Of a stretch of 32,452 nucleotides of DNA, positions 154 to 13,322 are shown in pieces. Within the stretch, counting starts at the first letter, position 1. The number at the start of each line of letters is the position of its first letter. Both the position numbers and the translations under genes were made by a program. Source of the DNA: a bacterium (GTDB lineage: Bacteria > ARS69). The notes under the pieces are model-generated. The model searched no databases. It had not been told where the DNA came from and was given only the letters and a program-made list of their open reading frames with translations. The DNA is taken from positions 1-32,452 of the forward strand of contig JALGZO010000673.1 of NCBI GenBank assembly GCA_025774865.1. Direction: 5' to 3'.

Positions 154-2085
154 TCAGTCGGCACCGGTATCGCCCGTCGAGCTGCCGGACTCTCCGGCCT
201 CGGCCGCCACAACCAGCTCTTCGAACATTCCCGGGTCCGCCCAGTCGCGGTGACAGAAGACGCAGTTCCCGCGGCTCGTGGGAAGCGCGGGATCCTCCTT
301 CTTCTCCTGCTCCCGGAGACGATGACACTCCAGACAGCTACCGTGCATGGCGTCCTTGTATCCGGGCGCCAGGTGGGCGAACCCCTTCTTCTCGTAGGAC
401 GCGAGCCCCACCATGTTCTCCCGGTGGCACTTCACGCAGGCCTCGTACGTCTCCCGGCGATCCGACAGGTCGGCGGCGAGGAATTCCCGGCGATCCTCCT
501 CCTTCTCGAAACGCTCTTCGTGCTGCACCATCCGGAACATCGGCGTGGGCACCTCCATGTCCAGATGGCAGCGACGACAGCTCGTGTTGTTGTCGGCCGG
601 ATAGTTCAGGTGGTGGCACTTGATGCACGTCTCCTCGACCTTCTCGAACTCGTAGACCTTCAGGAACTCCTCCTGATGCTTCTTGTGATCGAAGGCCGTG
701 ACCATGCCGTTACGGTTCGCGTCCAGACTGAACTTCGTCCGCATCTCGTCATTTGCGATCACGGCCGGATTCACCGGCTGGCGAATGGGTTCGAACGCGC
801 CCGTCGCCTGGGTCTTCAGCGCGGCCCACGTGATCGGCGTGAAGAGCACCGCGATCCGGACGAGGCGCCACACGAAGGCCCCGGTCACCTCCTTCCCCTC
901 TTCCCGCGTCCAGACGTCCCCCGGTGGCTCGTGCCCCGGCGCGTCGCCGAAGCGTCCCGCGTCATCGATGACGTGGAACCGCTCCAGAAGGAAGAAGAAG
1001 ACGAGGCCGACGATCGCCAGCACCCCGAAGCTGATCACGAGCTCACTGACGTTCGGGAAGTAGACCGCGTTCGACGATCGAAAGTAGCCCACGATCCCGG
1101 TGTCGATCCGGTGCATCGCGAGTCCGAGGAACGCGCTGACGCCGGCGACGGTCAATCCCGCCGTGCTGCGACGCATCTTCGGCCGGGAGAAGAGCACGAC
1201 CGGGATGATGGCCTGGAGGAGGATCTCCACGAAGAAGACCCGGCTCTCCCACGTCTGGTCCGGACCGAACACGAAGTTCCACTTGCCGTTGACCGTGAAG
1301 TCGGCCGTCCGGATCACCGCGTAGATCGCCAGGAGCCACGCGCTTCCTTTCGCCAGGCCGGACAAGACCGCCGGATCGTTCGGACGCCCGTACAGCCGGC
1401 CCGTGAAGAGCATCAAGAGGATGATCGTCGCGATCCCGCCGCCCATCGCGGAGACGAGAAACTCGGGTGGAATCCAGAGGCTGAACCACAGCGGGTGAAG
1501 CCGCGTCGGCGAGGCCATGAAGATCGAGCCGAGCGAGCTGTGGTGCATCGTGGAGAGCGTGATACCCAGCACGACGAACGGTAGCATCCGCTCGTGCATC
1601 CAGTGCGTGATCTTCTTCAGGGGAAATCGCTCGGTGACGATCGGCACGAGCTCCAGCGCCGTGACACCCCAGTACATCGACACGCACCAGAACACTTCGA
1701 AGAGGAACGAGTGTGGGTTCCACATGAAGAAGGGATGCCATCCGCGGTGCGGCAGCCCGATATCGAAGATGAGCGCGAAGAGGCTCGAGCCGTAACCGAG
1801 GAACCCGACGAGCACGCTGACTCGCGCCACGGGCCGGTACCGCTCCATCTGGAAGATGTAGATGATCGAGGCGACGACGAACCCGCTCGTGGCGAGCGCC
1901 GCTCCCGCGACCATGTTGAATACCTTCCACCAGCCCCATGGCAGCGCGTCCATCATGTTCGTGGAGGCACCGAGGCCGAACGCGAACCGTCCGATGCCCG
2001 CGACCATCCCCGCGATGGCGAGCGCCCAGAGAACGTCCTTCATCGGCTGGAGGAGTCGGCTGCGTCCGGTCACCATTCGGGGCAT
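154..2085 (-). CDS. NrfD/HybB/HmcC-family integral membrane subunit fused to a C-terminal pentaheme cytochrome c3-like domain
   Basis: N-terminal part has HybB/HmcC motifs (GLGASTNM..PWG.W, DIG.P.R..HP, S.LFEV.WC, LSTMHHSSLGS, LHPLW) and about 10 hydrophobic helices. One extra helix follows, then FDHKKH and five CxxCH motifs (CIKCH, CRRCH, CVKCH, CLECH, CVFCH). Confidence 0.88.
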   Translation of the reverse strand: MPRMVTGRSRLLQPMKDVLWALAIAGMVAGIGRFAFGLGASTNMMDALPWGWWKVFNMVAGAALATSGFVVASIIYIFQMERYRPVARVSVLVGFLGYGSSLFALIFDIGLPHRGWHPFFMWNPHSFLFEVFWCVSMYWGVTALELVPIVTERFPLKKITHWMHERMLPFVVLGITLSTMHHSSLGSIFMASPTRLHPLWFSLWIPPEFLVSAMGGGIATIILLMLFTGRLYGRPNDPAVLSGLAKGSAWLLAIYAVIRTADFTVNGKWNFVFGPDQTWESRVFFVEILLQAIIPVVLFSRPKMRRSTAGLTVAGVSAFLGLAMHRIDTGIVGYFRSSNAVYFPNVSELVISFGVLAIVGLVFFFLLERFHVIDDAGRFGDAPGHEPPGDVWTREEGKEVTGAFVWRLVRIAVLFTPITWAALKTQATGAFEPIRQPVNPAVIANDEMRTKFSLDANRNGMVTAFDHKKHQEEFLKVYEFEKVEETCIKCHHLNYPADNNTSCRRCHLDMEVPTPMFRMVQHEERFEKEEDRREFLAADLSDRRETYEACVKCHRENMVGLASYEKKGFAHLAPGYKDAMHGSCLECHRLREQEKKEDPALPTSRGNCVFCHRDWADPGMFEELVVAAEAGESGSSTGDTGAD

Positions 2086-2086
2086 G

Positions 2087-2974
2087 TCATTCCTCTTCGC
2101 TTCCGGGCGTCTCGTCCGGCCTTCCGTCGGCCGCCTCCCGCGCCCGCTCGGCCATCAACCGCTGGCGGCGCCGCAAGAACCACGCCCCGACGAGCCCCGC
2201 CCCCACCGTGAAGAACTGCACCGGCGTCACGAGAACCCAGCTGTGCAGCAAGTGGGGGATGGATTCGGTCTCGAGTGACGGCACCCGCATCTTCGCGAAC
2301 TCCGCGGACGTCGGGATCCGCAGGGCGTCGTTCAGTGGCACGTCGCTCAGGTAGATCACGGACGTCCCGCCGAACTCGCGCTCGCCGTACACGTGGTCCT
2401 GATAGAGGTCCGGCTGCTCGGCGATGCGGCGCTTCGCCTCCTCCAGAAGCTTCTCGCGGGGACCGAAGACCGTGGCCCCGGTCGGGCACGCCGCGGTGCA
2501 CGCGGGCACGCCGCCCTCCACGCGGCACTCGTCGTTCATCTTGCACTTGCGAACGAAGGGCAGGGCTTGATCGTACTCGTAGCGCGGAATCATGAACGGA
2601 CACGCGAGCATGCAGTAGCGGCAGCCGATGCACTTGTCGGCGTCGTACTCGACCGCGCCGTCGGGCGACTTGGAGAACGCTCCCACCAGGCACGCCGACT
2701 GGCATGACGCCTCCCGGCAGTGCAGACACTGCCGGCGGACGTTTCGCCAGGTTCCTTCCTCTTTCCCCGGGATCCGCACGATGGACGTGTACCGGCGCCC
2801 GGACAGCCCGTCGTCGGCCCGGTAGCGGGTCGGGATCTCACGGGGAAGCTTGTTTTGAACGACGCACGCTTCTACGCACCGCTCGCAGCCGATGCACTTC
2901 GTCACGTCCGTGAGGATCGCCTTCTCGGGGCTCACCTTTCCGGGACCGGCTTCCTGCGTTTGCGGTGTGCTCAC
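2087..2974 (-). CDS. HybA/HmcB/FdnH-like 4Fe-4S ferredoxin subunit with C-terminal membrane anchor
   Basis: Cys motifs CIGCERCVEAC, CLHCREASCQSAC, CIGCRYCMLACP, KC...PACTAACP. YGE.E.GGT motif and a C-terminal hydrophobic helix. GTG start with GAGGAG RBS. Confidence 0.9.
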   Translation of the reverse strand: MSTPQTQEAGPGKVSPEKAILTDVTKCIGCERCVEACVVQNKLPREIPTRYRADDGLSGRRYTSIVRIPGKEEGTWRNVRRQCLHCREASCQSACLVGAFSKSPDGAVEYDADKCIGCRYCMLACPFMIPRYEYDQALPFVRKCKMNDECRVEGGVPACTAACPTGATVFGPREKLLEEAKRRIAEQPDLYQDHVYGEREFGGTSVIYLSDVPLNDALRIPTSAEFAKMRVPSLETESIPHLLHSWVLVTPVQFFTVGAGLVGAWFLRRRQRLMAERAREAADGRPDETPGSEEE

Positions 2975-2995
2975 GTCGGACTCCTCGCAGCCTCG

Positions 2996-4504
2996 TCAGA
3001 GACCGAGGTTCGGGTTCACGGGTTCGATCCGGAAGTAGTCCTCCCACGTCTGCGGCCCGGCGCCGAGCTGGACGTGGCACTCGAGACAGAGCTTCCGGTA
3101 GGCGTCGTCGTAGCCGGGGGCCTTCGATCCCACGGCCGCGCTGCCCGGCACCGGACCGCTCTCGCCGTGGCACTTCGAGCAGGCCTGGATGCGTTCGGCC
3201 TCGCCGGTCCAGGCCGCGGCCGCCTTCGTCGCCGTCACGGGCAATCCGTCGTGCTGGAGGATTCCGTGGTGACAGTTGCGGCACGAGAAAGACCAGCTGA
3301 CCGCGTGGTCCCGGTGGTTCCAGGCGAATCGGCCATCCGGCCCTTCGTAGACGTAGACGTTCACGTCTTCCCGCTCCGTCGCCACGGCGTGCCAGGAGAG
3401 AAGGCCGTTCTCTTTCTCCTGGTGGCAGCCGAGGCATCTCTTCCGCAGCGCCTCCGCGACCGGCGGGTTGTCGTAGAGACCGGTGCCGTGACAACGGTTG
3501 CAGGACATGTGCGGCTGTTCGATCGCGGCGTCCGCGTGGTGGCACTTCACGCACTCCATGCCCTCGCCGTACTGCGCGTGGCGGTCGTGATCCCAGAGCA
3601 CGAGCCCCACGTCCAGGTCGGCGAGCAGCGACGGGTCCGGCTCGTGACAGTCGTTGCAGGCCACCGGCAGATCCTCCGGGCCGCCCGCGAAGTCCGTACG
3701 GTGGCACTCCGCGCACCGCTGGTGGACCGCCTGCTCGAGCGCGGGCCGCTGCACCTCGGTGTCGACGACCCATCCCCCGTGACAGTCTTTGCAGGTCCGC
3801 CGATCCTCCTCGGGGTTCGCGACGACGTGACAGCGCCCGCATTCCCCATGCTTCGCCTGCTCGTGAGATTTCTGCCCGGTGGCGAGCAACAGCCCTTCTG
3901 TCGCTGCCGTCTCGTGACACGCGGAGCACGCGCGATAGTCTGCCTCGGACTGCGCCTCCTCGTCCTGGTGATGGCATGACAGGCAGCGTTCGTGCAGCGT
4001 CGCCGCCCCTTCGATCTCGTAGCGGCGCGCGTGGGCGTGGTGGTCCCAGCGCACGAGCCCGTGCAACCCCGAGAACTCCTGCGCGTGGCAGTCGCGACAG
4101 CCGACCGGACCGGCCTGCATCGCCGTGTGACATCCGAGGCACCGCCCGTGGTACGCGGTCATCGGCGGTGGACCGTGGTCGTCGCCGTACTCCGGCGTCT
4201 CGACTTCGACCCCGTGGAACCCGGCCAAGAGGACCGCGTCCTGGTTCGTCTGCGTCTGGTGACAATCGCGGCACGGCCGAGGCTCCTGGACACCCGCCCG
4301 CTCCTGATGGTGACAAACCTGACAGTTCGCGATGTCCTTCATCCGGGCGTGCATCTCATGGTTCCAGACGACGTTGCCGAACCGCGACGGCAGAACCATG
4401 TCCGGTTCGAGCGCGGGACGAGCCAGGTAGGCGAACACGCCCACGCCGATGGAGAGGAAGAGACCCGTGATCAGGAGCGTGAGCGGGATGCGCCGGCGTC
4501 TCAT
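2996..4504 (-). CDS. 16-heme cytochrome c built of cytochrome c3-type repeats (HmcA-like size), N-terminal signal/anchor
   Basis: 16 CxxCH motifs counted, plus four W[ND]HxxH c3-type distal-His motifs. Start reassigned to ATG 4504 (MRRRRIPLTLLITGLF..., basic plus hydrophobic), which overlaps the rseC stop (ATGA). Confidence 0.9.
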   Translation of the reverse strand: MRRRRIPLTLLITGLFLSIGVGVFAYLARPALEPDMVLPSRFGNVVWNHEMHARMKDIANCQVCHHQERAGVQEPRPCRDCHQTQTNQDAVLLAGFHGVEVETPEYGDDHGPPPMTAYHGRCLGCHTAMQAGPVGCRDCHAQEFSGLHGLVRWDHHAHARRYEIEGAATLHERCLSCHHQDEEAQSEADYRACSACHETAATEGLLLATGQKSHEQAKHGECGRCHVVANPEEDRRTCKDCHGGWVVDTEVQRPALEQAVHQRCAECHRTDFAGGPEDLPVACNDCHEPDPSLLADLDVGLVLWDHDRHAQYGEGMECVKCHHADAAIEQPHMSCNRCHGTGLYDNPPVAEALRKRCLGCHQEKENGLLSWHAVATEREDVNVYVYEGPDGRFAWNHRDHAVSWSFSCRNCHHGILQHDGLPVTATKAAAAWTGEAERIQACSKCHGESGPVPGSAAVGSKAPGYDDAYRKLCLECHVQLGAGPQTWEDYFRIEPVNPNLGL

Positions 4505-4956
4505 CGCGACACCCGCCGCAGGATGCGTGCGACGAACGGGGTCAGCCGTGGGTCCCCGGCGGCCCGCCGGTCGACCCACCGGAGGACCCCGAAGGCGAGA
4601 GCCGCGCCGGATACCGCACCCAGAAACGCCGCCGCGTCCGCGACCAGTCCGGAACTCGTCGGCAGCGTTGTCCCCACGATCGCCCCCGCGACCATCCCGA
4701 GAAGCGGTACCACCCACACGAGAAGCGACAGCCGCAGCAGGCCGTGCTGGGGGAGGTCGAGCTCGACCGTGTCACCGGGTTCAGCGCCGACCGCGTTCCG
4801 GACCGTCACGATCTCGACGCAGGCCTCGGGATCCGGGAGCGTGCACGTGCTCGCCTCGGAGCAGCCCGTGCACGCCGAGCCGCGCGACGTGGAGACATCC
4901 GCGAGGGACCCCTGCGCCGAGACCACGACGCCGACCGAAGTGCTGCTCGCCTTCAA
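4501..4956 (-). CDS. rseC: RseC/MucC (SoxR-reducing system) family membrane protein
   Basis: SACTGCSEASTC motif, N.VGA.PGD.V motif and two C-terminal TM helices. Probable TTG start at 4956 with GGAGGG RBS about 9 nt upstream. RseC genes commonly neighbour rnf/rsx. Confidence 0.8.
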   Translation of the reverse strand: MKASSTSVGVVVSAQGSLADVSTSRGSACTGCSEASTCTLPDPEACVEIVTVRNAVGAEPGDTVELDLPQHGLLRLSLLVWVVPLLGMVAGAIVGTTLPTSSGLVADAAAFLGAVSGAALAFGVLRWVDRRAAGDPRLTPFVARILRRVSR

Positions 4957-4982
4957 TGTCGCAATCCCTCCCTTCGCATGAG

Positions 4983-7124
4983 CTAGACGTCCGGCGAGAC
5001 GCGCATGAACTCGGCGAGGTGCTCGCGCAATCCCCGCCCGTTCGTGTGGTGGTCGCGCTCGACGTCTTTGAAGAAGCAAAGCGTCCCACATCGCATGCAG
5101 CGATTGGCCTCTGCGCGCATCAAGTCTTCGGTCACGACGAGGTCGACCTCGTCGAACGTGTGGATCCGTTCCTCGACCGGAAGCTCGGGGTGGCGCGTCG
5201 CGGGCAGCTGCTCGACGCCGTCGATCTCGACGGCCCGTGACTCTTCGAGAGGCGTGGGGCCCTTGAACGTGCCCGGCGGCATCCACGGCTTCTCTCCGTT
5301 GAGAAATTGATGGATCGAGCGCGCCGCACGACGGCCGCTCCCCACGGCGTCGACCAGCAGCGCGGGGCCGGTCCAGAGGTCGCCACCCGTGAAGATGTTC
5401 GGGACGTCGGACTGCAGCGTTTGTTCGTCGGCCTGGATCGTGTTCCACTTCGTGACCTTCAGCCCCCGCTCCTTCAGGTCGTCTGTGTACCAGTCGGGCA
5501 ACGGCTTCTGACCGATCGCCGCGATCACGACGTCCACGTCCATCATGGTTTCGGAGCCCTCGATCGGGACGGGACGCCGCCGGCCGGAGTCGTCCGGCTC
5601 GCCGAGCTCCATCCGCAGGAACTCGATTCTCCGGAGCTTTCCCTCCTCGTCACCGAGGAGTCGCGTCGGCGCGGCGAGGAAGTGGTACTTCACGCCTTCC
5701 TCCTCCGCCGCCACGATCTCGACTGCGTTCGCCGGCATCTCCTTGCGCGTCCGCCGGTAGAGAAGCGTGACCTCCGACGCCCCCATTCGGAGAGATGAGC
5801 GACAGGCGTCCATGGCGGTGTTGCCGCCGCCGACCACGACGACCCGCTGCCCGGAGAGATCCACGTGGATGCCGAGCTCGCGCTTCTCGAGGAACTCCGT
5901 CCCCTTCCACACGCCATCCAGGTCCTCTCCGTCGCAGCGGAGCGACGAGTTGTCCCAAGCGCCGAGCGCGATGAGGACCGCGTCGAACTCCGACTCGAGA
6001 TCCTCGATGAAGAAGTCCTTCCCGAGCCCGAGCTCGACGCGCGTCTCGACCCCCAGGTCGAGAATCTCCCCGATCTCGACGTCCAGGACCTTCTTCGGCA
6101 GGCGGTACTCGGGGATGCCGTAGCGCATCATGCCGCCGAGCTCCGGTTTGGATTCGAAGATCGTCGGGTGATGGCCGAGGCGGCGCAGGAAGTACGCAGC
6201 GGTGAGCCCACAGGGCCCTCCGCCCACGATCGCGACCTTCTTGCCGGTGCTCGGCAAGACGAGGGTCGGGCGGCGCTCCGAGACGTTCATCTCCCAGTCG
6301 GCGCAGAAGCGCTTGATGTAGTTGTGGTGGACCGGCTCGTCGTCGATCGCGACCCGGCGGCACCCGACTTCGCAGGGGGCCGGGCACACCCGCCCGCAGA
6401 TCAGCGGCAACGGATTGCGTTCCTTCACGACGTTGATCGCTTCGGCATAAAGGCCGTTCGAGGCGAGATCCACGTAGCGAGGGATGTCGATCTGAGCCGG
6501 GCAGAGCTGAGCGCACGGTGCATGACATTCGCCGACGGCATTGAAGTGCAGCAACCGCTCGCTCAACTTGAAGACCTTGATGATGTTCGTGGGACAGACC
6601 TCCTCGCACTTCCCGCAGCCGACGCACTTGTCCGCGACGACGATGGGGAAGCCCTCGTCGCCCCGCTCCAGCGCGTCGAAGGGGCACTCGCGCACGCAGG
6701 TCCATCCACCCAGGCAACCGTTCTGACACGTGATGTCGCCGCCGAAGAGCTCGAACATCGAGCGGCAGTCGAGTGCGCCGTCGTAGCGGTATTTGCGGTC
6801 GGCGCGGTCCCCTCCGGCACAGCCGTGGATCGCGACGCGAGGCTCCGCGCTGCCCGCTGCCCCGCCGAGGATCCCGGCGACCCTCGCGGTCGTGTCGCTG
6901 CCGCCGGCGATGCACGCGTCGACCGAGGCCTTTCCGGCCACCATCGCCTCTGCGCACGCGGAGCAGCCCGAGAATCCGCAGCCACCGCAGTTCGCGCCCG
7001 GGAGCGCGTCCTCCACCTCCGCGATGCGCACGTCGACGTCCACGTGGAAGACCCGTGCCGCCACTGCCAGCACGCCGGCCGCCGCGAGCCCGATGCCTGT
7101 CATGATGATTGCCGGTTCGTACAT
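4983..7124 (-). CDS. rnfB: RnfB fused to a GltD/NfnB/SudA-like FAD/NAD(P)H oxidoreductase (about 713 aa)
   Basis: N-terminal TM helix, LPGANCGGCGFSGC RnfB cluster and two ferredoxin motifs. Then APC...CP, CGRVCPAPCE.GCRR, GGGPCG (FAD), GGGNTAMD with LYRRT (NADP-type) and C-terminal RCMRCG. ATG 7124 overlaps the rnfA stop. Confidence 0.9.
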   Translation of the reverse strand: MYEPAIIMTGIGLAAAGVLAVAARVFHVDVDVRIAEVEDALPGANCGGCGFSGCSACAEAMVAGKASVDACIAGGSDTTARVAGILGGAAGSAEPRVAIHGCAGGDRADRKYRYDGALDCRSMFELFGGDITCQNGCLGGWTCVRECPFDALERGDEGFPIVVADKCVGCGKCEEVCPTNIIKVFKLSERLLHFNAVGECHAPCAQLCPAQIDIPRYVDLASNGLYAEAINVVKERNPLPLICGRVCPAPCEVGCRRVAIDDEPVHHNYIKRFCADWEMNVSERRPTLVLPSTGKKVAIVGGGPCGLTAAYFLRRLGHHPTIFESKPELGGMMRYGIPEYRLPKKVLDVEIGEILDLGVETRVELGLGKDFFIEDLESEFDAVLIALGAWDNSSLRCDGEDLDGVWKGTEFLEKRELGIHVDLSGQRVVVVGGGNTAMDACRSSLRMGASEVTLLYRRTRKEMPANAVEIVAAEEEGVKYHFLAAPTRLLGDEEGKLRRIEFLRMELGEPDDSGRRRPVPIEGSETMMDVDVVIAAIGQKPLPDWYTDDLKERGLKVTKWNTIQADEQTLQSDVPNIFTGGDLWTGPALLVDAVGSGRRAARSIHQFLNGEKPWMPPGTFKGPTPLEESRAVEIDGVEQLPATRHPELPVEERIHTFDEVDLVVTEDLMRAEANRCMRCGTLCFFKDVERDHHTNGRGLREHLAEFMRVSPDV

Positions 7125-7699
7125 CAGATCATTCCCTTGAACGCGTAGAAGGAGAGGGCCATGAGGCCGGCGGTCACGAGCCCGATACCGGTTCCCTGCA
7201 TCGGCTTCGGGACGTGCGCCGTCTCGAACCGCTCCCGGATGCCCGCGAAGAGCACCAGCGCCAGCCCGAAGCCGGCTGCCGATGCCGCGGAGAATACGAT
7301 GGTTTCGAGCAGGTTGAGCTCTTCCTGGACATTGATGATCGCGACGCCCAGGACCGCGCAGTTCGTCGTGATGAGCGGCAGGAAGATTCCCAGCGACTTG
7401 TAGAGGGTGGGAATCGACTTGCGAAGGAACAGCTCGACGAACTGCACGAGGGTCGCGATGACGAGGATGAACGCGAGCGTCCGCACGTAGCCGATGCCGA
7501 TCGGGATCAGGAGGAAGCGGTCCACCGCCCACGTGATCACACCCGCCAGCGTCAGCACGAAGAGGACCGCGCCGGACATGCCGACGGCGGTGTCCATCTT
7601 CTTCGAGACCCCGAGGAACGGACAGTTCCCCAGGAACCTCGCCAGCAGGATGTTGTGGATGAACACCGCGCCGATGACGAGCTCGAGGTAGTGATCCAT
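7124..7699 (-). CDS. rnfA: Rnf electron transport complex subunit A
   Basis: NILLARFLGNCPFLGVSKK and LGIFLPLITTNCAVLG signatures; six TM helices. Confidence 0.96.
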   Translation of the reverse strand: MDHYLELVIGAVFIHNILLARFLGNCPFLGVSKKMDTAVGMSGAVLFVLTLAGVITWAVDRFLLIPIGIGYVRTLAFILVIATLVQFVELFLRKSIPTLYKSLGIFLPLITTNCAVLGVAIINVQEELNLLETIVFSAASAAGFGLALVLFAGIRERFETAHVPKPMQGTGIGLVTAGLMALSFYAFKGMI

Positions 7700-7709
7700 T
7701 GCCGACCCC

Positions 7710-8360
7710 CTAGCTCGTCTTCGACGGGAAGAGGTTCATGATGCCGAGCAGGAGCCCGAGTGCGACGAATGCTCCGGGCGCCTGCGCGAAGAACGCGAAC
7801 GGCTCGGCGAGGAACACCCTCTCGCCGAAGAAGAGAGTCAAGGTCCCCGCTCCGAAGAACTCGCGCACGGCACCCAGCACCGTCAGCGCGATCGTGAAAC
7901 CCAGTCCCATCCCGAGCCCGTCGGCGATGGAAGGAATCAGCCCGTTCTTTCGCGCGAACGCCTCGGCCCGGCCGAGGATGATGCAGTTCACGACGATCAG
8001 CGGGATGAAGAGCCCCAGGCTCTCGGAGAGCTGGAAAAAATACGCCTTGGTGATCATCTCCACGCAGACCACGAAGGTCGCGATGATCACGATGTACGCC
8101 GCCACCCGGACTTCGTTCGGAATCACCTTGCGTAGAGCCGAGACCAGGAAGTTCGAGCAGACGAGAACGAACGTCGCCGCGATCCCCATGCCGAACCCGT
8201 TCTCGGCGGTCGTGGTCACCGCGAGCGCCGGACAGAGTCCCAGCACGAGCCGGAAGGGCGGGATGTCGGTCCAGAGTCCCTTCGTGAACTCGCGCGCCAC
8301 GGCGGCGGCGCTCATCCGCGGGCGGACGGGAACGGCGATCGGCACGGACGGCGCGCTCAC
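7710..8360 (-). CDS. rnfE: Rnf electron transport complex subunit E
   Basis: LGLCPALAVTT and LGLFIPLIVVNCIILGRAEAFA signatures. Confidence 0.96.
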   Translation of the reverse strand: MSAPSVPIAVPVRPRMSAAAVAREFTKGLWTDIPPFRLVLGLCPALAVTTTAENGFGMGIAATFVLVCSNFLVSALRKVIPNEVRVAAYIVIIATFVVCVEMITKAYFFQLSESLGLFIPLIVVNCIILGRAEAFARKNGLIPSIADGLGMGLGFTIALTVLGAVREFFGAGTLTLFFGERVFLAEPFAFFAQAPGAFVALGLLLGIMNLFPSKTS

Positions 8361-9010
8361 GAGACACCTCCTGGCTCATCCTCGTCCACCCGCAGCGCCT
8401 CCAGATCGTCGCGGATCGCGGCCTCGTGCTCCCTGAATTTCGTCATCGCCGCGTCCACCGCGTCGGCGACGGCGCGGCTGGAAACCGTTGCTCCGGTGAT
8501 CGCGTCGATGGCGCCGCCGTCCTTCTTCACTTTGAACATGGTGTCACCGGCGAGCCCCGCGAACTGCTCCGTGAACGCCTCCTCCCGCACCCGCGTGCCC
8601 ACGCCGGGTGTCTCGCTCATCGTCGTCACGCCGACGCCGGTGACTCCCATCGACGCGAGGTCGACGCCGACCATGACCCCGACGTCGCCGCCGAATCCCT
8701 GGCCCGCGCCTTCCAGCGCGACCGCGGCCGGGCGCCCGTCCTGCTTCAGCACGAAGAACAGGAGTGGACTCCTTTCGCCGATCTCGACGAGGTGCTTCTC
8801 CGCGAGGAGCTCCTCTTCGAGACCGAGACGATCCTCGGGACCGATCTCCCGACCCATCGCTTGATAGATGTCCACCACGGCGGGGATCTTCTTGAACTTG
8901 AGCACGTTGTTCGCGGCGAGCTCGTACGTCGCCTCGTGAAGCGCGCCGAGGGACAGCCCGCTTCCGAGCGTGATCAGGCCGAGCACGAGGAGCATGCGCG
9001 TGGAAGTCAC
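8357..9010 (-). CDS. rnfG: Rnf electron transport complex subunit G (FMN-binding)
   Basis: N-terminal TM helix; G.GFGG, ETPG.G and the DAITGATVSS covalent-FMN motif. GTG 9010 overlaps the rnfD stop (alternative ATG 8995). Confidence 0.92.
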   Translation of the reverse strand: MTSTRMLLVLGLITLGSGLSLGALHEATYELAANNVLKFKKIPAVVDIYQAMGREIGPEDRLGLEEELLAEKHLVEIGERSPLLFFVLKQDGRPAAVALEGAGQGFGGDVGVMVGVDLASMGVTGVGVTTMSETPGVGTRVREEAFTEQFAGLAGDTMFKVKKDGGAIDAITGATVSSRAVADAVDAAMTKFREHEAAIRDDLEALRVDEDEPGGVS

Positions 9011-9969
9011 GGGGTCACCGCCTCCTGCCGCCGGATCCGGAACCGATCGAGCAACGGGGTCAGGATGTTCATCAGGATCACCGCAAACGGTACGGCGTCG
9101 GCCCAGACCCCGAAGCCTCGAATCAGGACGATCAGGAACCCGAGTCCGAAACCGTAGAGCCACATCGCGCGACGGTTCGCCGGCGAGCACGTGGGATCGG
9201 TGGCGAGGAAGAACGCCGCGAGGAACACGTGGCCCTTCAAGAACTGGTCGCCGAAGCTCCCCTCCAGGCGCCCGGCGAAGAGGAGCGCGAAGACCGCGAC
9301 GCCGCCGAGAACCCCCAGGGAGATCTGCGGTCGGATAACTCCCCGCGCCCAGAGGAAGAGACCGCCGAACGCGGTGAGCAGGACCGAAGTGGATGTGGCC
9401 GACGCGACGCTTGCCATCCCGACCGGGTAGATCCAATGAGGCCACGACAGAACGAGGACCAACCAGCCGATGACGGCGGGGTGCATCGGGTAGCTCCCGA
9501 TGCCGCCGAAGAGCTGCTTGCCGAGGAACACCGCGACCACGACTCCGATCAGGAGCACCCAAACCGGAACCGTCGGCGGTAAGAGGAGCGCCAGCAGAAC
9601 TCCCATGAGAGCCGCGTGGCCGTCGAGCGCCCGATAGGGCTGGCGCATCGCGATCTGCGAGAGGTACTCGACCAGAACCGCGAAACCCGAAGCCAGCGCG
9701 ACCGTCCCGAGAATCCCGAGCAGCCAGAGCGGACCGGTGTCGATTCCCATCTCGACCGCCAGCATCTTCACGATCGGGCCGAGCGAGCCGACTCCGGCGT
9801 CGGCCGGATCGAGAACGGCGGCTTTCGGCCCGAACGCGTGTCCGATGGCCCCGAAGAGCGCGGTCGGCATCAGCGCCAGCACCGTCAGGTGGTGAGCGCG
9901 CGTGAGACCGCGACGCGCTCGTACATGCGGAGCGGCTCCGACGGTGTAGTGAGTGGAGGGATCGGGCAC
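9007..9969 (-). CDS. rnfD: Rnf electron transport complex subunit D (short variant)
   Basis: LLLPP..P, KQLFGGIG..P.HPA, FFLATDP..SP and IR.FG....VPFAVIL.N...P..D motifs; position between rnfC and rnfG. Confidence 0.92.
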   Translation of the reverse strand: MPDPSTHYTVGAAPHVRARRGLTRAHHLTVLALMPTALFGAIGHAFGPKAAVLDPADAGVGSLGPIVKMLAVEMGIDTGPLWLLGILGTVALASGFAVLVEYLSQIAMRQPYRALDGHAALMGVLLALLLPPTVPVWVLLIGVVVAVFLGKQLFGGIGSYPMHPAVIGWLVLVLSWPHWIYPVGMASVASATSTSVLLTAFGGLFLWARGVIRPQISLGVLGGVAVFALLFAGRLEGSFGDQFLKGHVFLAAFFLATDPTCSPANRRAMWLYGFGLGFLIVLIRGFGVWADAVPFAVILMNILTPLLDRFRIRRQEAVTP

Positions 9970-9973
9970 GGCG

Positions 9974-11344
9974 TCAGTCCTTGGTCACGGTGGCGACGGG
10001 AACGGCGATCGGGTCCGGCTCGCGCGGAGCCGGGGTGGGACCGGCGGTGTCGTCGGCGACGATCGCGGCCGTCGCGGCGATCTCGCGCTTGGCGAGTCGG
10101 ATGTGTTGGAGGATCGGACGCCGGGCCGGACAGACGGTGGCGCAGAGTCCGCATTCGATGCAGTCGTCCAGGCCGTAGTCAGGCGTCCGGTCGAAGAGAC
10201 TGAACTCCGCGAAGCGCGTCAGCTGGTGAGCCGGAAGTTTCTCCGGACACACGTCGAGGCACCACCCGCAGTTCACGCAGGGCTCATCGCTCCAGTCGCG
10301 GAACGTGCCCTTCTTGATCAGCATGAGCGCGTCGACGGTGGCGTCGACGGCCGCATCGAGCGAGTACTGCGCGAGCCCCCGGAATAGCCCCCCGGTCACG
10401 ATCTTGTCGCCGGGCTCGGGCTCGACACCGGCCGCGGCAAACACGTCGCCGAGGCGCGTGCCCATGGAAACGCGGAAGTTGCCGATCGACGCGCCGGAAG
10501 AGTCGAGGATCGTCACGACCCGGCTCGAGGGAACCCGACCGAGCTCGACGGCACCGAGGGCCGCGAGGGCGCGGGCGAGCGGGATGACGGCCGGCCGCGC
10601 GCCCTTCACGCGGACGCGGCGCGCGACCGCCTCCGGGAGCGTCGCCGGATACTCGGCGGCGAGGGGCAGGATCTCGATCCCCGCGCCAGCGGCCGCCATA
10701 CGGATCGCCGCCGCCCGCGCTTCGAGGACGGCGAGGACCGGCCGGTCGGCGCCAGCGAGGCGCGCCACCAGGAGGGTCGCGCGGGCGGCCGCGCTCGGAT
10801 CGTCCAGCAGAAGACTGAGCGCCGCCGTGATCCCGGGCTCGGGGTCGGCGGCCAGGACGACGACGGTATCGGCCGCCTCCGGCAGCTCGAGCTGAACGCC
10901 GGCCTTCCGCAAACGAACCCGAAGATCGTCGACCGAGGCGCAGCTCGGGTCGAGCGGCGCGAACGCTGTGTCGCCGTTGCCGGCGGGCTCGAGGAGGACC
11001 GCGAGCCCGGGCTTTCCGCCCCGGACGTCGGGCGCCTGTTTCACGCCGGCGATCCTGCCCGCCGTGGGGCTCGGGACGATGGGGAGGTCGCCCACGGTGC
11101 CGAGAGGCTGCCCGGCGGCGACCTCCTGGTCCGCCGTCACCGATGGCGACAGCCGCGGTCCGCTCACGTCGGAGCGTCCCAGAAAGATGGCGAGGGTGTC
11201 GGGAGCGGGAAGCTCGGTGAGCGGGGCTGGCTCCACCGCCAGTGGGTACCGCGCTTCCGGCACGGCGAGGAGCCGCCGGAGCAGGCGAAAAAGTCCGAGC
11301 CTGGGGCGCCCCGTCGCTCCAGGGGCATGCGCCGCCGTTGTCAA
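9974..11344 (-). CDS. rnfC: Rnf subunit C, divergent (keeps two 4Fe-4S motifs, NADH/FMN loop degenerate)
   Basis: N-terminal sandwich/barrel-like V.AGQ.LG...SP..G.I, SLBB-like GT...D....G region, CVNCGWCLDVCP and CIECGLCATVCP. First gene of the rnfCDGEAB order. Start uncertain: TTG 11344 with GAGGGGAG RBS, or TTG 11377. Confidence 0.85.
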   Translation of the reverse strand: MTTAAHAPGATGRPRLGLFRLLRRLLAVPEARYPLAVEPAPLTELPAPDTLAIFLGRSDVSGPRLSPSVTADQEVAAGQPLGTVGDLPIVPSPTAGRIAGVKQAPDVRGGKPGLAVLLEPAGNGDTAFAPLDPSCASVDDLRVRLRKAGVQLELPEAADTVVVLAADPEPGITAALSLLLDDPSAAARATLLVARLAGADRPVLAVLEARAAAIRMAAAGAGIEILPLAAEYPATLPEAVARRVRVKGARPAVIPLARALAALGAVELGRVPSSRVVTILDSSGASIGNFRVSMGTRLGDVFAAAGVEPEPGDKIVTGGLFRGLAQYSLDAAVDATVDALMLIKKGTFRDWSDEPCVNCGWCLDVCPEKLPAHQLTRFAEFSLFDRTPDYGLDDCIECGLCATVCPARRPILQHIRLAKREIAATAAIVADDTAGPTPAPREPDPIAVPVATVTKD

Positions 11345-11425
11345 ACGCTCGCTCCCCTCGCGGACCCGAACGGGCAAAACAAGGAGCCCCAGCCAGCCTG
11401 CGGGCAGATCCCGGATATCCCGCCA

Positions 11426-11460
11426 GCTCTGGATTACCAGAGCAAGAATTCCTATATTCT
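11426..11460. promoter_or_regulatory. Divergent rnf/ior promoter region with a perfect inverted repeat GCTCTGG-ATTA-CCAGAGC and an AT-rich TATATT element
   Basis: 7-bp perfect arms at 11426-11443. AGAAT-N6-ATTCT at 11445-11460 contains TATATT. This is an AT-rich patch between divergent operons. Confidence 0.45.
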
Positions 11461-11537
11461 AATTGTCGGGGATTCGTCCGACCGTCAAGGGTCAGCGGAC
11501 GGCGACCGGCGACCATCGGGAGCATCGGGGGACCTCG

Positions 11538-13322
11538 TTGAAGCAGCTCATGTCGGGGAACGAGGCGGTCGCTCGGGGCGCCTGGGAAGCAGGGACCCAC
11601 TACGCGACGGGCTACCCGGGCACCCCGAGCACCGAGATCATCGAGACTCTCTCCGGGTATCCCGGCGTCACCGCGGAGTGGTCGACGAACGAGAAGGTGG
11701 CCTTCGACGTCGCCACGGGCGTCTCACTCGCGGGCAAACGGGCTCTCGTGACCATGAAGCACGTCGGCCTCAACGTGGCGGCCGACTCCTTCATGGTTCT
11801 CCCCTACTCCGGCTGCATTGGCGGGTTCGTCGTCGTCTCCGCGGACGATCCGGGGATGCACTCGTCCCAGAACGAGCAAGACAACCGCTACTTCGCGAAG
11901 TTCGGCAAGGTCCCTCTTCTCGAGCCGGTCGATCCCCAGGAAGCCAAGGACTTCGTCCGCATCGCGTTCGACATCTCCGAGCGGTTTGAAACCCCGGTGC
12001 TTCTCCGCACCACGACGCGCATCTCGCACACGAAAGGCGTGGTGACGCTCGGGGAGCCCGTGACTCCTTCCCCGAAGAGCTACGAGACCGACATCCCCCG
12101 CTTCCTCGTTCCTCCTTTCGCGCGCCGGCTCCGACCCTTGGTCGAGGAGCGGCTCGAGCGTCTGCAGGAGTTCAGCGAGAGCTTCGAATACAACCGCGTG
12201 GAGGAAGGGGATCCCGGCGTCGGCGTGATCACGAGCGGCGTGGCCTACCAGTACGCCCGCGAGGTTCTACCGCACGCCACCTACTTGCGGCTCGGGATGT
12301 CGTTCCCGTTCCCCGTCGCGATGGTGCGTCGCTTCTGCGAACGTTTCGATCAGGTGCTCGTCATCGAGGAAGGAGAGCCGTTTCTCGAGGAGTCTCTTCG
12401 CGTCAACGGAATCGACAACGTCGTGGGTAAGCAGAAGATTCCGCTCACGGGCGAGCTGAACCCCGAGATCCTGGCGCACGCGATCCACGGGACACCGCCC
12501 CCGAAGTCCTACGCCGACGAGATGCCGATTCCGCCCCGGCCACCGCTGTTCTGCCTCGGCTGCCCCCACCGGGGCGTGTTCTACGCGCTGAAGAAGAGGA
12601 TGAAGGCCGGCGTGGTCGCTCTGGGCGACATCGGTTGCTATACGCTCGGAGGGCTTCCACCGTACTCGTCGATGCAGACCTCACTCTGCATGGGAGCGAG
12701 CGTCGGGAACGCGCTCGGCTTCGCCCAGGCGACGGGAGACAACGGCGATCGCAAAGCCGTGGGCATCATCGGCGACGGCACATTCCTGCACGGCGGGATT
12801 CCAGGATTGATCGACATGGTCTACAAGAAGAGCCTGGCGACTCTCGTCATTTGCGACAACTCGACGACGGCCATGACCGGCCAGCAGCAGAATCCCGCGA
12901 GCGGCAAGACGATCGCGGGGGAGGCTGCGCCGCGCGTCGATCTCGTGCGGCTCATCGAGTCCATCGGAGTGGATTTCGTCCGCGTGATCGACCCGTACGA
13001 CATCCAGGATCTGCGTAAGACCTTGAGTGCGGCGATCCGGCACCCCGGTCCATCGGTCGTGATCGCGCGGCACGCCTGCCTGATGATCCGTGAGGAACGG
13101 GAAAAGGTGCGGGAACCGATCCGGTTCGACCCCGAGCCCTGCAATTTCTGCAAGGCTTGCTACGAGTTCGGGTGTCCCGCGATCGATTGGAGCGACGAGT
13201 CGGGTCCGATCATCGACGAGCTGCAGTGCATGGGGTGCGAGATGTGCGCCACGTTCTGCGGACCGGGGGCCCTGCAGCCGGCGGAAGCGGTCGGTCTGGC
13301 GCTGGGGGACGGGGCGTCATGA
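11538..13322 (+). CDS. iorA: Indolepyruvate:ferredoxin oxidoreductase subunit alpha
   Basis: GNEAVARG, YPGTPSTEI, NEKVA, MKHVGLNVAAD, DDPGMHSSQNEQDNR, RPP.FC.GCPH, GDIGCYTLG, TPP motif GDGTF.H.G...DN..TAMTG and two C-terminal ferredoxin motifs. TTG start with GGGGGA RBS. Confidence 0.95.
   Translation: MKQLMSGNEAVARGAWEAGTHYATGYPGTPSTEIIETLSGYPGVTAEWSTNEKVAFDVATGVSLAGKRALVTMKHVGLNVAADSFMVLPYSGCIGGFVVVSADDPGMHSSQNEQDNRYFAKFGKVPLLEPVDPQEAKDFVRIAFDISERFETPVLLRTTTRISHTKGVVTLGEPVTPSPKSYETDIPRFLVPPFARRLRPLVEERLERLQEFSESFEYNRVEEGDPGVGVITSGVAYQYAREVLPHATYLRLGMSFPFPVAMVRRFCERFDQVLVIEEGEPFLEESLRVNGIDNVVGKQKIPLTGELNPEILAHAIHGTPPPKSYADEMPIPPRPPLFCLGCPHRGVFYALKKRMKAGVVALGDIGCYTLGGLPPYSSMQTSLCMGASVGNALGFAQATGDNGDRKAVGIIGDGTFLHGGIPGLIDMVYKKSLATLVICDNSTTAMTGQQQNPASGKTIAGEAAPRVDLVRLIESIGVDFVRVIDPYDIQDLRKTLSAAIRHPGPSVVIARHACLMIREEREKVREPIRFDPEPCNFCKACYEFGCPAIDWSDESGPIIDELQCMGCEMCATFCGPGALQPAEAVGLALGDGAS

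Follow-up and report, generated by a model that had tools for sequence, protein, structure and literature searches.

The window that we analyzed, a stretch of 32,452 nucleotides of bacterial DNA, contains a cluster of ten genes at positions 154-11344, all on the minus strand, with junctions ranging from -4 to 26 nt. The order is rnfC-D-G-E-A, an rnfB fused to a GltD/NfnB-like domain (rnfB::GltD), rseC, a 16-haem HmcA-like cytochrome c, an HmcB/HybA-like iron-sulfur protein, and an HmcC/NrfD-like protein with five fused haems. With our choice of start codons, the junctions from rnfC onward are 4, 11, -4, 10, -1, 26, -4, 21, and 1 nt. The gap of 26 nt lies between rnfB and rseC and the gap of 21 nt lies between the cytochrome and the iron-sulfur protein, while the stop codon of rseC overlaps the ATG of the cytochrome (-4 nt). 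The preliminary description of this DNA had reported ten same-strand genes with overlapping or short junctions and a total of 21 haems, and our coordinates, junction lengths, and counts of CxxCH motifs (16 in the cytochrome and 5 in the HmcC/NrfD-like fusion) agree with this. Upstream of rnfC is a divergent intergenic region (11345..11462), followed by an iorA-like ORF that starts at 11463 on the plus strand; from its position only, we presume that this region holds the promoter of the cluster. A simple scan gave no sigma-70-like match in this region and no promoter-like sites in the cluster. There were six terminator-like sites (5.0 +/- 2.6 expected), none of them inside the gaps between minus-strand genes.

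We assigned genes to families by using Pfam and NCBIfam profile models with their cut-offs. The membrane core subunits are rnfE (7710..8360; PF02508, 212.7 bits; TIGR01948, 241.9 bits, cut-off 213.4) and rnfA (7124..7699; PF02508, 194.1 bits; TIGR01943, 257.6 bits, cut-off 229.3). rnfD (9007..9969) matches PF03116 (219 bits) and rnfG (8357..8995) matches FMN_bind (58.6 bits). For all subunits, the Nqr models from NCBIfam score below the Rnf models. The rnfC gene (9974..11344, with an uncertain start at TTG 11344 or alternatively at 11377) is degenerate, with just 140.1 bits for TIGR01945 (cut-off 245.95). Its product retains a trace of the N-terminal barrel-sandwich and two [4Fe-4S] motifs, and among solved structures it is closest to RnfC chains (7zc6_C and 9eri_C). 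The FMN/NADH site is absent: Complex1_51K scores 21.1 bits (cut-off 31.2), and Pfam and NCBIfam gave no SLBB domain. Three motifs that are found in 4/4 canonical RnfC are missing from all eight RnfC of operons with RnfB::GltD. Similarly, Complex1_51K scores 162-168 bits in 3/3 canonical RnfC, and in seven of the eight variants it is undetected or at or below about 21 bits (the eighth has 42.5 bits). The same genome also encodes a canonical RnfC (506 bits).

The flavin sites of the other subunits point in the same direction. In an alignment of 14 RnfD proteins, the flavin-attachment loop, which bears the threonine, is present in 4/4 canonical proteins and absent from those of clusters linked to Hmc-like genes (7/7) and from the Desulfovibrionaceae-type rows (3/3). 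RnfG has an N-terminal membrane anchor and a predicted outward-facing FMN domain, and the flavin-attachment motif is kept in all 14 aligned RnfG. (The best NCBIfam model for RnfG is RnfG_DVU2794, at 158.1 bits with a cut-off of 205; ApbE is encoded elsewhere in the genome.) Both RnfG and RnfD have clade-specific insertions after the first membrane helix, in 7/7 Hmc-linked rows and 0/7 others; in the window's RnfD, the insertion is about 38 residues. Because the FMN/NADH motifs of RnfC and the flavin loop of RnfD are lost and the RnfG site is kept, electrons probably exit the pump on the outside via RnfG. This sequence evidence speaks against the classical ferredoxin:NAD+ reaction, in line with the preliminary suggestion.

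The proposed inlet is the 713-residue RnfB::GltD (4983..7124; PRK12771, 494.7 bits), which has one N-terminal membrane helix. Residues 1-190 contain the iron-sulfur domain PF04060 and Fer4 domains, and residues 200-597 contain Fer4_20 and Pyr_redox_2; the fused part is a GltD/NfnB-like module for FAD, NAD(P)H, and two [4Fe-4S] clusters. Matches in the PDB agree with this division: residues 4-191 match RnfB (9eri_B and 7zc6_B), and the closest solved relatives of residues 176-686 are NfnB-like chains. The FAD and NAD(P)H dinucleotide motifs are conserved in 11/11 homologues. In a quick tree, the RnfB::GltD of Hmc-linked clusters form one clan (8 rows, SH-aLRT 100), with 65-75% identity within the clan and at most 58% identity to the sulfate-reducer type.

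Downstream of rnfB, rseC (4501..4956; RseC_MucC, 94.3 bits) starts with TTG after a good Shine-Dalgarno sequence and encodes a small membrane protein with two helices and an N-terminal Cys motif. The cytochrome (2996..4504) has 16 CxxCH motifs, four Cytochrom_CIII stretches, and a single transmembrane segment, an N-terminal helix that looks uncleaved and is found in 6/6 homologues. A profile of six homologues matches high-molecular-weight cytochrome c structures (2e84, 1gws, and 1h29; E = 4e-20 to 9e-20). The iron-sulfur protein (2087..2974; HmcB model, 224.7 bits; HybA, 195.4 bits) has motifs for four [4Fe-4S] clusters and a C-terminal membrane helix. None of its six homologues examined has an N-terminal signal peptide. 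Alignments of the HmcB and HybA models to this protein begin at profile position 37-38, just 7 codons are open upstream of its GTG start, and no partner with a Tat signal is encoded in the cluster. The last gene (154..2085; PF03916, 58 bits; HmcC model, 227.6 bits; HybB, 223.6 bits) encodes ten helices followed by one more, the 11th, and ends in a cytochrome domain with five haems. In the available text of the NrfD review, the 10-helix core ends on the N-side; because the 11th helix follows such a core, we place the haem domain outside. D108 and S126 are invariant in 5/5 proteins and map, approximately, to an acidic position and a serine that the same text ties to quinone binding. Genes for the futalosine pathway of menaquinone synthesis are present in the genome. 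HmcB and HmcC are the best models, but the module, originally labelled "Hmc-like", is closer to Nhc than to Hmc: genes for HmcD, HmcE, and HmcF are absent.

A search of gene neighborhoods for rnf followed by rseC, a multihaem cytochrome, HybA, and NrfD found that the linkage is conserved in two small phyla (7 genomes) and on 5 metagenome contigs. The full set of genes occurs, identically ordered, in G000, G002, G029 (where it is divided between two contigs), G044, G045, and G047, with 16-18 haems in the cytochrome and 5-6 haems in the HmcC fusion; in G046, the locus breaks off within the cytochrome gene. As the gene set and order are shared with six other genomes, the arrangement is more than chance. 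Carriers account for 2/12 genomes of the window's phylum and 5/13 of the second phylum, where all five genomes of one family have the linked cluster. Among 13 metagenome loci, rseC adjoins the cytochrome in five, and rnfB::GltD is also visible in four of those five. The flanking genes differ in every relative inspected, so the ten genes move as one block. The proposal that the module could feed the nearby Psr is not supported by this comparison, as the link to Psr is not conserved. Rnf2-type operons without Hmc-like genes also occur: the linkage is seen at 0/20 such loci from the sampled phylum and at 0/3 Desulfovibrionaceae-like loci. A small cytochrome gene upstream of rnfC is present in 9/14 Rnf2-type operons of the sampled phylum and absent from the Hmc-linked clade.

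Co-transcription of all ten genes, as first described, is plausible in the window's lineage only. In 8 of the 12 loci with readable orientation (L013, L105, L129-L132, L111, and L112), rseC is on the opposite strand, so rnf and the cytochrome module cannot share a single simple transcript in most carriers. Where rseC is inverted, the cytochrome module would need its own promoter or antisense read-through.

We propose, with a probability of about 0.5, that the cluster encodes an Rnf2-type Rnf whose outlet has moved outside, and an Nhc/Hmc-like quinone reductase module as the recipient of its electrons. NAD(P)H would enter at the FAD of the GltD/NfnB-like domain on RnfB, and the RnfB clusters may be a second entry point, for reduced ferredoxin. 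From the iron-sulfur clusters of RnfB, electrons would move on to the [2Fe-2S] centre that RnfA/E hold in the membrane and then to the FMN of RnfG, which faces outward. Next would come the 16-haem cytochrome, anchored in the membrane, and after it the 5-haem domain. The haems would then deliver them to the HmcB-like 4x[4Fe-4S] protein, the HmcC/NrfD-like quinone site, and menaquinone. Judging from the motifs, the pump probably releases its electrons on the outside, where RnfG would hand them to the haems and these, in turn, to menaquinone. In the Rnf of A. woodii, as described in the available text of PMC11889175, Na+ accompanies the electron across RnfA/E as far as the RnfG FMN, and the role of RnfD is confined to electron transfer. 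Because the published Rnf stroke is complete once the electron crosses RnfA/E to RnfG, the assembly would act as an ion-pumping NAD(P)H/ferredoxin:menaquinone oxidoreductase. The sequences show gene content and order, conservation, which cofactor motifs are kept or lost, and the predicted topology; we infer that the two halves are physically coupled, what the donor and acceptor are, which way the electrons flow, and that ions are pumped. The cluster suggests that electrons from NAD(P)H or ferredoxin in the cell may have a path to the quinones of the membrane. The missing signal peptide of the HmcB-like protein (6/6 homologues) counts against the proposed wire: if this protein stays in the cytoplasm, then the outside wire is wrong. 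The model also does not account for the role of the two [4Fe-4S] motifs that RnfC retains.

The two halves could instead be independent neighbors, that is, an Rnf2-type complex with its own reaction and an Nhc-like periplasmic cytochrome:menaquinone oxidoreductase with other periplasmic donors, adjacent due to a shared redox network or joint transfer. Several observations speak against coupling. The inversion of rseC in 8/12 loci implies separate transcription units; Hmc and Nhc complexes are autonomous and function without Rnf in Desulfovibrio (available text of the NrfD review and PMC4215793); in the latter source's account of D. alaskensis G20, dhcA is part of the rnf transcript, but no fitness phenotype was seen for it where rnf mutants had one; and Hmc-like genes are absent from the 20 Rnf2 loci of the sampled phylum and the three Desulfovibrionaceae-like loci. 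Nevertheless, we consider independence rather unlikely, because the linkage holds in 7/7 inspected genomes of the Hmc-linked clade, from two phyla and with unrelated flanks; this clade lacks the small cytochrome of other Rnf2 operons and has its own insertions in RnfG and RnfD; and with the flavin sites of RnfC and RnfD gone, the pump needs an outside acceptor.

It is also possible, but we think unlikely, that the same chain runs in reverse, driven by the ion gradient. Menaquinol would be oxidized at the NrfD-like subunit and electrons would return through the haems, RnfG, and RnfA/E to RnfB::GltD, yielding NAD(P)H or reduced ferredoxin during growth on high-potential donors. Rnf complexes are reversible (available text of PMC12174285 and PMC11889175), a canonical Rnf is already in the genome for the forward ferredoxin:NAD+ reaction, and ferredoxin-dependent IorAB and Hdr/Mvh-like enzymes are encoded near the cluster in the window. 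However, the sequence sets no direction, the adjacent IorAB more naturally makes reduced ferredoxin than uses it, and the neighborhood is not conserved. Least probable, in our view, is that the haems are an outlet to periplasmic or extracellular acceptors, with the HmcBC-like part as an anchor or side branch. The available text of the review PMC12174285 reports MmcA from Methanosarcina in both intracellular and extracellular transfer, and 21 haems far exceed the need of a short hop to a quinone site. But there was no gene for an outer-membrane conduit or a porin-cytochrome in or beside the cluster at the loci inspected, and the NrfD core is highly conserved, including D108 and S126 at the putative quinone positions.

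The Rnf half of our cluster, with RnfB::GltD and the degenerate RnfC, is already in print: the available text of PMC5109826, which cites Woehlbrand et al. 2016, describes an Rnf2 or Desulfobacula toluolica Tol2-type Rnf of Desulfobacteraceae, in which RnfB is large and RnfC is without the NADH/FMN domain. The shared features are an RnfB of about 700 amino acids with an extra NAD(P)-binding flavoprotein part, an RnfC from which the NADH-ubiquinone-oxidoreductase and SLBB domains are absent, a gene for a cytochrome c within the cluster, and the coexistence with an Rnf1 of the A. woodii type in one genome. Here, however, the partner is not a small cytochrome upstream of rnfC; instead, rseC and the genes for the 16-haem, 4-cluster, and NrfD::5-haem proteins are downstream of rnfB. 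Also, RnfB::GltD forms a separate clan here, and RnfD and RnfG have extra insertions. The preliminary description did not mention this precedent for the Rnf half; we found no description in the literature of the linkage to a full cytochrome/Fe-S/NrfD module.

The two precedents that had been named, DhcA from Desulfovibrio and MmcA from Methanosarcina, do appear in the papers (available text of PMC4215793 and PMC4023990). In dhcA-rnfCDGEABF of Desulfovibrio (available text of PMC4841214 and PMC4215793), a multihaem cytochrome is likewise cotranscribed with rnfCDGEAB; furthermore, our RnfG matches the D. vulgaris-type model best, and two Desulfovibrionaceae loci (L017 and L018) have the same RnfB::GltD fusion. 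That operon differs, in these accounts, in that the decahaem gene is upstream of rnfC, it has no FeS/NrfD genes, and it is closed by rnfF/apbE. The Hmc (HmcABCDEF) and Nhc (NhcABCD) complexes of sulfate reducers share the order of cytochrome, 4x[4Fe-4S] protein, and 10-helix NrfD-like subunit, and, as in Hmc, the cytochrome has 16 haems, with HmcA structures as its best solved relatives. All three proteins are far under the cut-offs of the Hmc equivalogs (cytochrome 71.6/400, HmcB 224.7/420, and HmcC 227.6/550). Without HmcD/E/F there is no cytoplasmic exit, as in Nhc. Unlike in Hmc or Nhc, a signal peptide is missing from the FeS protein, a 5-haem domain is fused to the NrfD subunit, and the module is behind an rnf cluster.

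If our proposal is correct, then the assembly functionally parallels the Rnf-MmcA of Methanosarcina and Na+-NQR. In M. acetivorans (available text of PMC4023990 and of the review PMC12174285), NAD(P)+ is unused at RnfC, a multihaem cytochrome c is co-encoded, and the model has electrons moving from the outward RnfG flavin through the cytochrome to methanophenazine, a membrane quinone-like carrier. This system is archaeal, has just one cytochrome, and lacks both an FeS/NrfD quinone module and a GltD domain on RnfB; we liken the cytochromes by role. The comparison to Na+-NQR is in how it works only: NQR is Rnf-derived, with an NAD(P)H-oxidizing flavoprotein at the inlet, an RnfC homologue that lacks the nucleotide site, and quinone as the acceptor. 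In NQR, RnfB is replaced by NqrF and quinone is reduced at NqrA/B, on the inner side; in our cluster, RnfB is still present and carries an extension, the FeS motifs of RnfC persist, and quinone would be reduced in a separate NrfD-type module that is reached via outside haems.

Ten ORFs, all on the minus strand, fill positions 154-11344 of the window. With the starts that we chose, the junctions in cluster order are 4, 11, -4, 10, -1, 26, -4, 21, and 1 nt, which reproduces the ten-gene layout of the preliminary description, including its two wider gaps (26 and 21 nt). All six Rnf subunits were matched by Pfam and NCBIfam, in the order rnfC, rnfD, rnfG, rnfE, rnfA, rnfB. RnfA, RnfE, and RnfB (TIGR01944, 79.2 versus a cut-off of 68.7) score above their NCBIfam cut-offs and RnfC, RnfD, and RnfG score below; the score of RnfC is weak (140 bits versus a cut-off of 246). 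RnfB has 713 amino acids. It begins with 190 residues of ordinary RnfB sequence, and residues 200-686 are GltD/NfnB-like, with sites for FAD, NAD(P)H, and two [4Fe-4S] clusters (PF04060, Fer4_20, and Pyr_redox_2). After rseC (4501-4956) come a 16-haem cytochrome, an HmcB/HybA-like protein with four clusters (2087-2974), and an HmcC/HybB/NrfD-like membrane protein that carries haem motifs at its C-terminus. We count 16 CxxCH motifs in the cytochrome and five in the NrfD-like protein, so the 21 haems that had been claimed are confirmed. The contig stops 153 nt past the NrfD-haem gene; in relatives, the genes downstream of it are unrelated (a thiolase, a membrane protein, or a gene on the opposite strand).

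The Rnf half of this cluster belongs to the published Rnf2 or Tol2 type. The Tol2-type Rnf of D. toluolica has an RnfB of about 700 amino acids with NAD+-binding sites, and the large RnfB of the window, with its NAD(P)-binding part, shares this feature. The window's RnfC also agrees with the Tol2 type, in which RnfC is without the NADH-ubiquinone-oxidoreductase and SLBB domains. D. multivorans has the A. woodii-type Rnf1 and Rnf2 together, with a small cytochrome gene beside Rnf2. The paper behind these descriptions, which names the type, regards the electron partner of its RnfC as something that "has to be identified" and its mode of action as awaiting a test (PMC5109826). The window's own genome also encodes a canonical RnfC (506 bits), which lies on a different contig. 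Between them, contigs C620 and C540 (loci L183 and L106) hold this canonical RnfC and a second, short RnfB-like gene; the genome therefore pairs an ordinary Rnf with the variant, as has been reported for D. multivorans.

Rnf2-type clusters often have a small cytochrome c gene upstream of rnfC, whereas the window's cluster does not: neither the window nor loci L129-L132 have an ORF with a CxxCH motif in that position. Such a gene is present at loci L017-L019. A genome scan found the full RnfB::GltD fusion at 3 of 80 loci, where the gene upstream of rnfC has 10, 10, or 4 haems. We also sampled 401 genomes from the phylum of Desulfovibrio. Strong matches to RnfB::GltD (E ≤ 1e-150) were found in 50 of them, and we inspected 20 of the matching loci. 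Fourteen are rnfCDGEA-B operons, and in nine of them rnfC is immediately preceded by a 4-8-haem gene; none of the 20 has an Hmc-like trio beside rnfB. The other six (L167, L171, and L173-L176) are full-length RnfB::GltD-like genes that stand alone, the surrounding 6-8 kb or so being free of rnf genes. At two of these loci, a 3-haem ORF lies 4-6 kb away, as does an ORF with weak similarity to HybA. In our tree, the stand-alone copies nest among the operon-borne ones. The Hmc-linked clusters thus differ from other Rnf2 in having rseC and a three-gene module downstream of rnfB instead of a cytochrome upstream of rnfC. What is new relative to Rnf2 is the attached Nhc/Hmc-like module, the fusion of NrfD to haems, and a fully stripped NAD+ branch.

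RnfC shows the degeneration of the NAD+ branch. The RnfC of the Rnf complex (the Fd:NAD+ oxidoreductase) has a Nuo51-type FMN/NADH domain and an SLBB domain, and the window's RnfC is without both: Complex1_51K scores 21.1 bits (Pfam cut-off 31.2) and there is no SLBB hit. We aligned 12 RnfC proteins, four canonical and eight from RnfB::GltD operons. The Nuo51-type FMN/NADH site is represented by three motifs, which all four canonical proteins share and all eight others lack. In Pfam searches, three of three canonical proteins have Complex1_51K (162-168 bits) and SLBB; among the eight variants, Complex1_51K is absent or at most 21 bits in seven and reaches 42.5 bits in the eighth, and SLBB is never found. 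The two [4Fe-4S] cysteine motifs are kept in every RnfC from RnfB::GltD operons, with a single Cys-to-Ser change in one protein.

RnfD has lost its flavin site as well. The loop with the flavin-attachment threonine is kept in 4/4 canonical proteins, replaced in 3/3 of the Desulfovibrionaceae type, and deleted in 7/7 of the Hmc-linked ones. The corresponding threonine motif of RnfG is present in all 14 aligned proteins, and both dinucleotide motifs of the flavoprotein part of RnfB are present in 11 of 11; the closest solved relatives of that part are NfnB-like chains. The Hmc-linked RnfD (9007-9969 in the window) has an insertion of about 38 residues past its first helix (residues ~47-85), and the Hmc-linked RnfG (8357-8995) has an additional segment past its membrane anchor (residues ~48-62). 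Both insertions are found in 7/7 Hmc-linked and 0/7 other Rnf systems, and might provide a surface on which the cytochrome docks.

The attached module resembles both Hmc and Nhc. HmcA is a 16-haem protein. The window's cytochrome has 16 CxxCH motifs, and HmcA structures are its best matches in the PDB, but it scores only 71.6 bits against the HmcA model NF045713 (cut-off 400). The HmcB and HmcC models are the best matches for the other two proteins, yet the scores are below the equivalog cut-offs (224.7 versus 420 bits and 227.6 versus 550 bits). Hmc also has a cytoplasmic exit, made up of HmcD, HmcE (a cytochrome b), and HmcF (HdrD-like), which has no counterparts in the Hmc-linked cluster. 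In this respect the module is the same as Nhc, which is described as a cytochrome c, a protein with four [4Fe-4S] clusters, and a 10-helix NrfD-like protein, without cytoplasmic subunits (PMC8076601). However, NhcA has nine haems rather than 16, and in the ORF layout there is no extra small gene, as would be expected for an NhcD-like protein, between or after the window's three module genes. The NrfD-like subunit is above the cut-off for PF03916 (58 bits versus 25.8). Its D108 and S126 are invariant in 5/5 proteins and lie near Asp109 and Ser129 of HybB, which stand for the acidic residue of helix 2 and the quinone-pocket serine (PMC8076601), although this mapping is approximate, as it comes from a near-collinear profile alignment only.

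As to topology, the 16-haem cytochrome has an N-terminal membrane helix in all six homologs. The 10-helix NrfD core ends on the N-side (PMC8076601), so the 11th helix that follows this core would place the 5-haem domain outside. A run of arginines comes after the C-terminal helix of the HmcB-like protein, and the positive-inside rule would accordingly put its cluster domain outside too. The protein has no signal peptide in 6/6 homologs (the window's and five others), and no Tat-signal partner for its export is encoded in the cluster. Only seven codons are open upstream of its start, and the HmcB and HybA profiles begin 36-37 positions earlier. Elsewhere in the window's genome, contig C334 (locus L016, 7100-9441) has a second pair of HybA-like and HmcC-like genes, cut by the contig end. 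We set this pair aside as a paralog, as it lies behind ORFs that resemble two-component or sigma-54-type regulators and no rnf genes are nearby.

The linkage of Rnf to this module is conserved. In the window's phylum, the cytochrome is found in 2 of 12 genomes (the window's own and G002), all 12 being from one family; in a second small phylum, it is found in 5 of 13 genomes, which are all five members of one family. The full gene set is present in the same order in four of these relatives (G002, G044, G045, and G047). In G029 it is divided between two contig ends that match up, and in G046 the contig terminates within the cytochrome gene. Scanning metagenomes with an alignment of the cytochrome gave 13 loci. 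In five of these rseC adjoins the cytochrome, and four of the five also have either rnfB::GltD or all of the rnf genes; the cytochrome match is weak at the remaining eight, which lack rnf. Genome contigs were also scanned with peptide words from a protein of the window, and no Hmc-linked clade member was among the hits. The flanks of the cluster vary (thiolase, lipase, or pilus or secretion genes), and because they differ in every genome, the ten genes behave as a unit. The proposed linkage is therefore borne out in two phyla and in metagenomic loci, and it is probably conserved beyond these two phyla.

We built a quick maximum-likelihood tree from 31 RnfB::GltD proteins, in which the eight Hmc-linked ones form one clan (SH-aLRT of 100). 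The proteins from the window and G002 are placed among those of the second phylum (support of 86), which is suggestive, but no proof, of lateral transfer. In a large protein collection, the RnfB iron-sulfur domain is combined with the flavoprotein part in 115 of the 120 best-matching clusters. The first 81 of these 120 (P0001-P0081) share 62% identity or more with the window's RnfB::GltD, the same range as for the Hmc-linked clan, and their source names are only "FAD-dependent oxidoreductase" and similar.

Co-transcription of all ten genes had also been proposed, and here the comparison with relatives is less favorable. Only in the window and at loci L108-L110 is rseC on the same strand as its neighbors; the remaining 8 of 12 loci have it on the opposite strand, still placed between rnfB::GltD and the cytochrome gene (for example, at 6874-7398 of L013 and 2595-3053 of L105), so its strand flips between otherwise collinear clusters. 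In the window, the stop codon of rseC overlaps the ATG of the cytochrome gene. At the opposite-strand loci, a divergent gap of 59-80 bp precedes the cytochrome module, so the module would need its own promoter in this gap, or read-through of antisense rseC. A single operon is thus possible in the window's lineage only, and the inversion of rseC in most carriers argues against it elsewhere. Overall, the observations of the preliminary description hold, and its interpretation holds in part.

Simple scans for expression signals, which are weak evidence at 64-72% G+C, found no promoter-like site in the window and six terminator-like sites, which is no excess over shuffled sequences (5.0 ± 2.6). 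None of the terminator-like sites is in a minus-strand gap of the cluster. Promoter and terminator scans of the region between rseC and the cytochrome in three relatives gave nothing decisive, and no Rfam family was found across the entire window. The cytochrome at L110, which has rseC on the same strand, is 60% identical to the window's, versus 68% for that of G002, which has rseC on the opposite strand; since L110 is farther from the window, rseC may have been inverted more than once. We considered whether rseC is an invertible element, but no inverted repeats convincingly bracket the gene (L105 has one 19-nt pair, but it is inside the adjoining coding regions). An rseC beside rnf has precedent: that of C. 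ljungdahlii immediately precedes rnfC, has a transcript of its own, and is needed for Rnf-dependent autotrophy (PMC9124969). The presence of rseC fits the Rnf half of the cluster, and its variable orientation agrees with an accessory gene being expressed on its own.

In the Rnf of A. woodii, Na+ moves with the electron via RnfA/E to the FMN of RnfG (PMC11889175). Because RnfB, RnfA/E, and RnfG are intact in the cluster even though the flavin sites of RnfD and RnfC are lost, the pumping stroke is still feasible. With those flavin sites gone, the electron would have to exit from RnfG, on the outside. RnfG might then pass electrons to candidates encoded next door, the membrane-tethered 16-haem cytochrome and the 5-haem domain; from there they would reach the clusters of the HmcB-like protein and a quinone site of the NrfD type, where menaquinone would be reduced. 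Past the cofactor motifs and the topology, we infer the steps of this path from sequence. The window's genome contains ApbE and genes of the futalosine pathway; we did not find menA in its assembly (which is 93% complete). We tentatively propose that the cluster encodes an Rnf-derived, ion-pumping NAD(P)H/ferredoxin:menaquinone oxidoreductase supercomplex, with an outer-face exit via RnfG, a membrane-tethered wire of 21 haems, and menaquinone reduction of the NrfD type. The RnfA/E pump might be one coupling site and electrogenic proton uptake by NrfD a second, and menaquinone might be the acceptor for the whole Rnf2 class. We put the probability of this proposal at roughly one in three.

Several observations weaken this path. 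The HmcB-like protein has neither a signal peptide nor a partner with a Tat signal, and the clusters that RnfC has kept have no role in the path. Also, in D. alaskensis, the cotranscribed dhcA had no fitness phenotype where rnf mutants had one (PMC4215793). The same components might instead run in reverse, with the ion gradient driving electrons from menaquinol to NAD(P)+ or ferredoxin. This is a live alternative because the sequence does not give the direction.

The surroundings of the cluster in the window point to an anaerobe with ferredoxin-linked metabolism. Divergent from rnfC is iorAB (11463-13876), which resembles indolepyruvate:ferredoxin oxidoreductase and might supply reduced ferredoxin locally; we did not find it beside the cluster in the relatives that we inspected. 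At the other end (27734-32452), an hdrC/B/A-like trio, with a gene for a MarR-family regulator upstream, is followed by a gene similar to the small subunit of hydrogenase, which runs past the end of the window. Also present in the window are glutamine synthetase, psrABC, and sulfur-transport genes.

In the openly accessible full-text literature, judged by titles, abstracts, and passages, we found no description of an rnf cluster with a cytochrome/FeS/NrfD module behind it. In a 2025 review of Rnf and NQR, the Methanosarcina cytochrome is the sole extra subunit mentioned (PMC12174285). A 2021 review of NrfD proteins includes no Rnf-associated member, and the words 'rnf' and 'fused' are absent from it (PMC8076601). 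Another paper covers ordinary Rnf only (PMC9324843). Rnf2-type complexes are common, as indicated by the 50 of 401 genomes and the 115 of 120 best protein clusters, and a flavin-stripped inner NAD+ branch together with a complete quinone module is the clearest genomic hint so far to their electron partner. Our proposal gives a concrete and testable answer to what these complexes reduce. If it is correct, then labels such as "ferredoxin:NAD+ oxidoreductase" or "FAD-dependent oxidoreductase" cause metabolic reconstructions to miscount the energy-conserving sites of these anaerobes.

A precedent is found in Methanosarcina, where electrons are proposed to flow from RnfG to a cytochrome c and then to methanophenazine (PMC4023990). 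The logic is the same, but the window's cluster adds an inlet for NAD(P)H and a complete quinone reductase module, and, if the supercomplex exists, it would be a testable bacterial counterpart to the Rnf-cytochrome system of Methanosarcina. It would also be a second, independent solution to the task that is performed by Na+-NQR.
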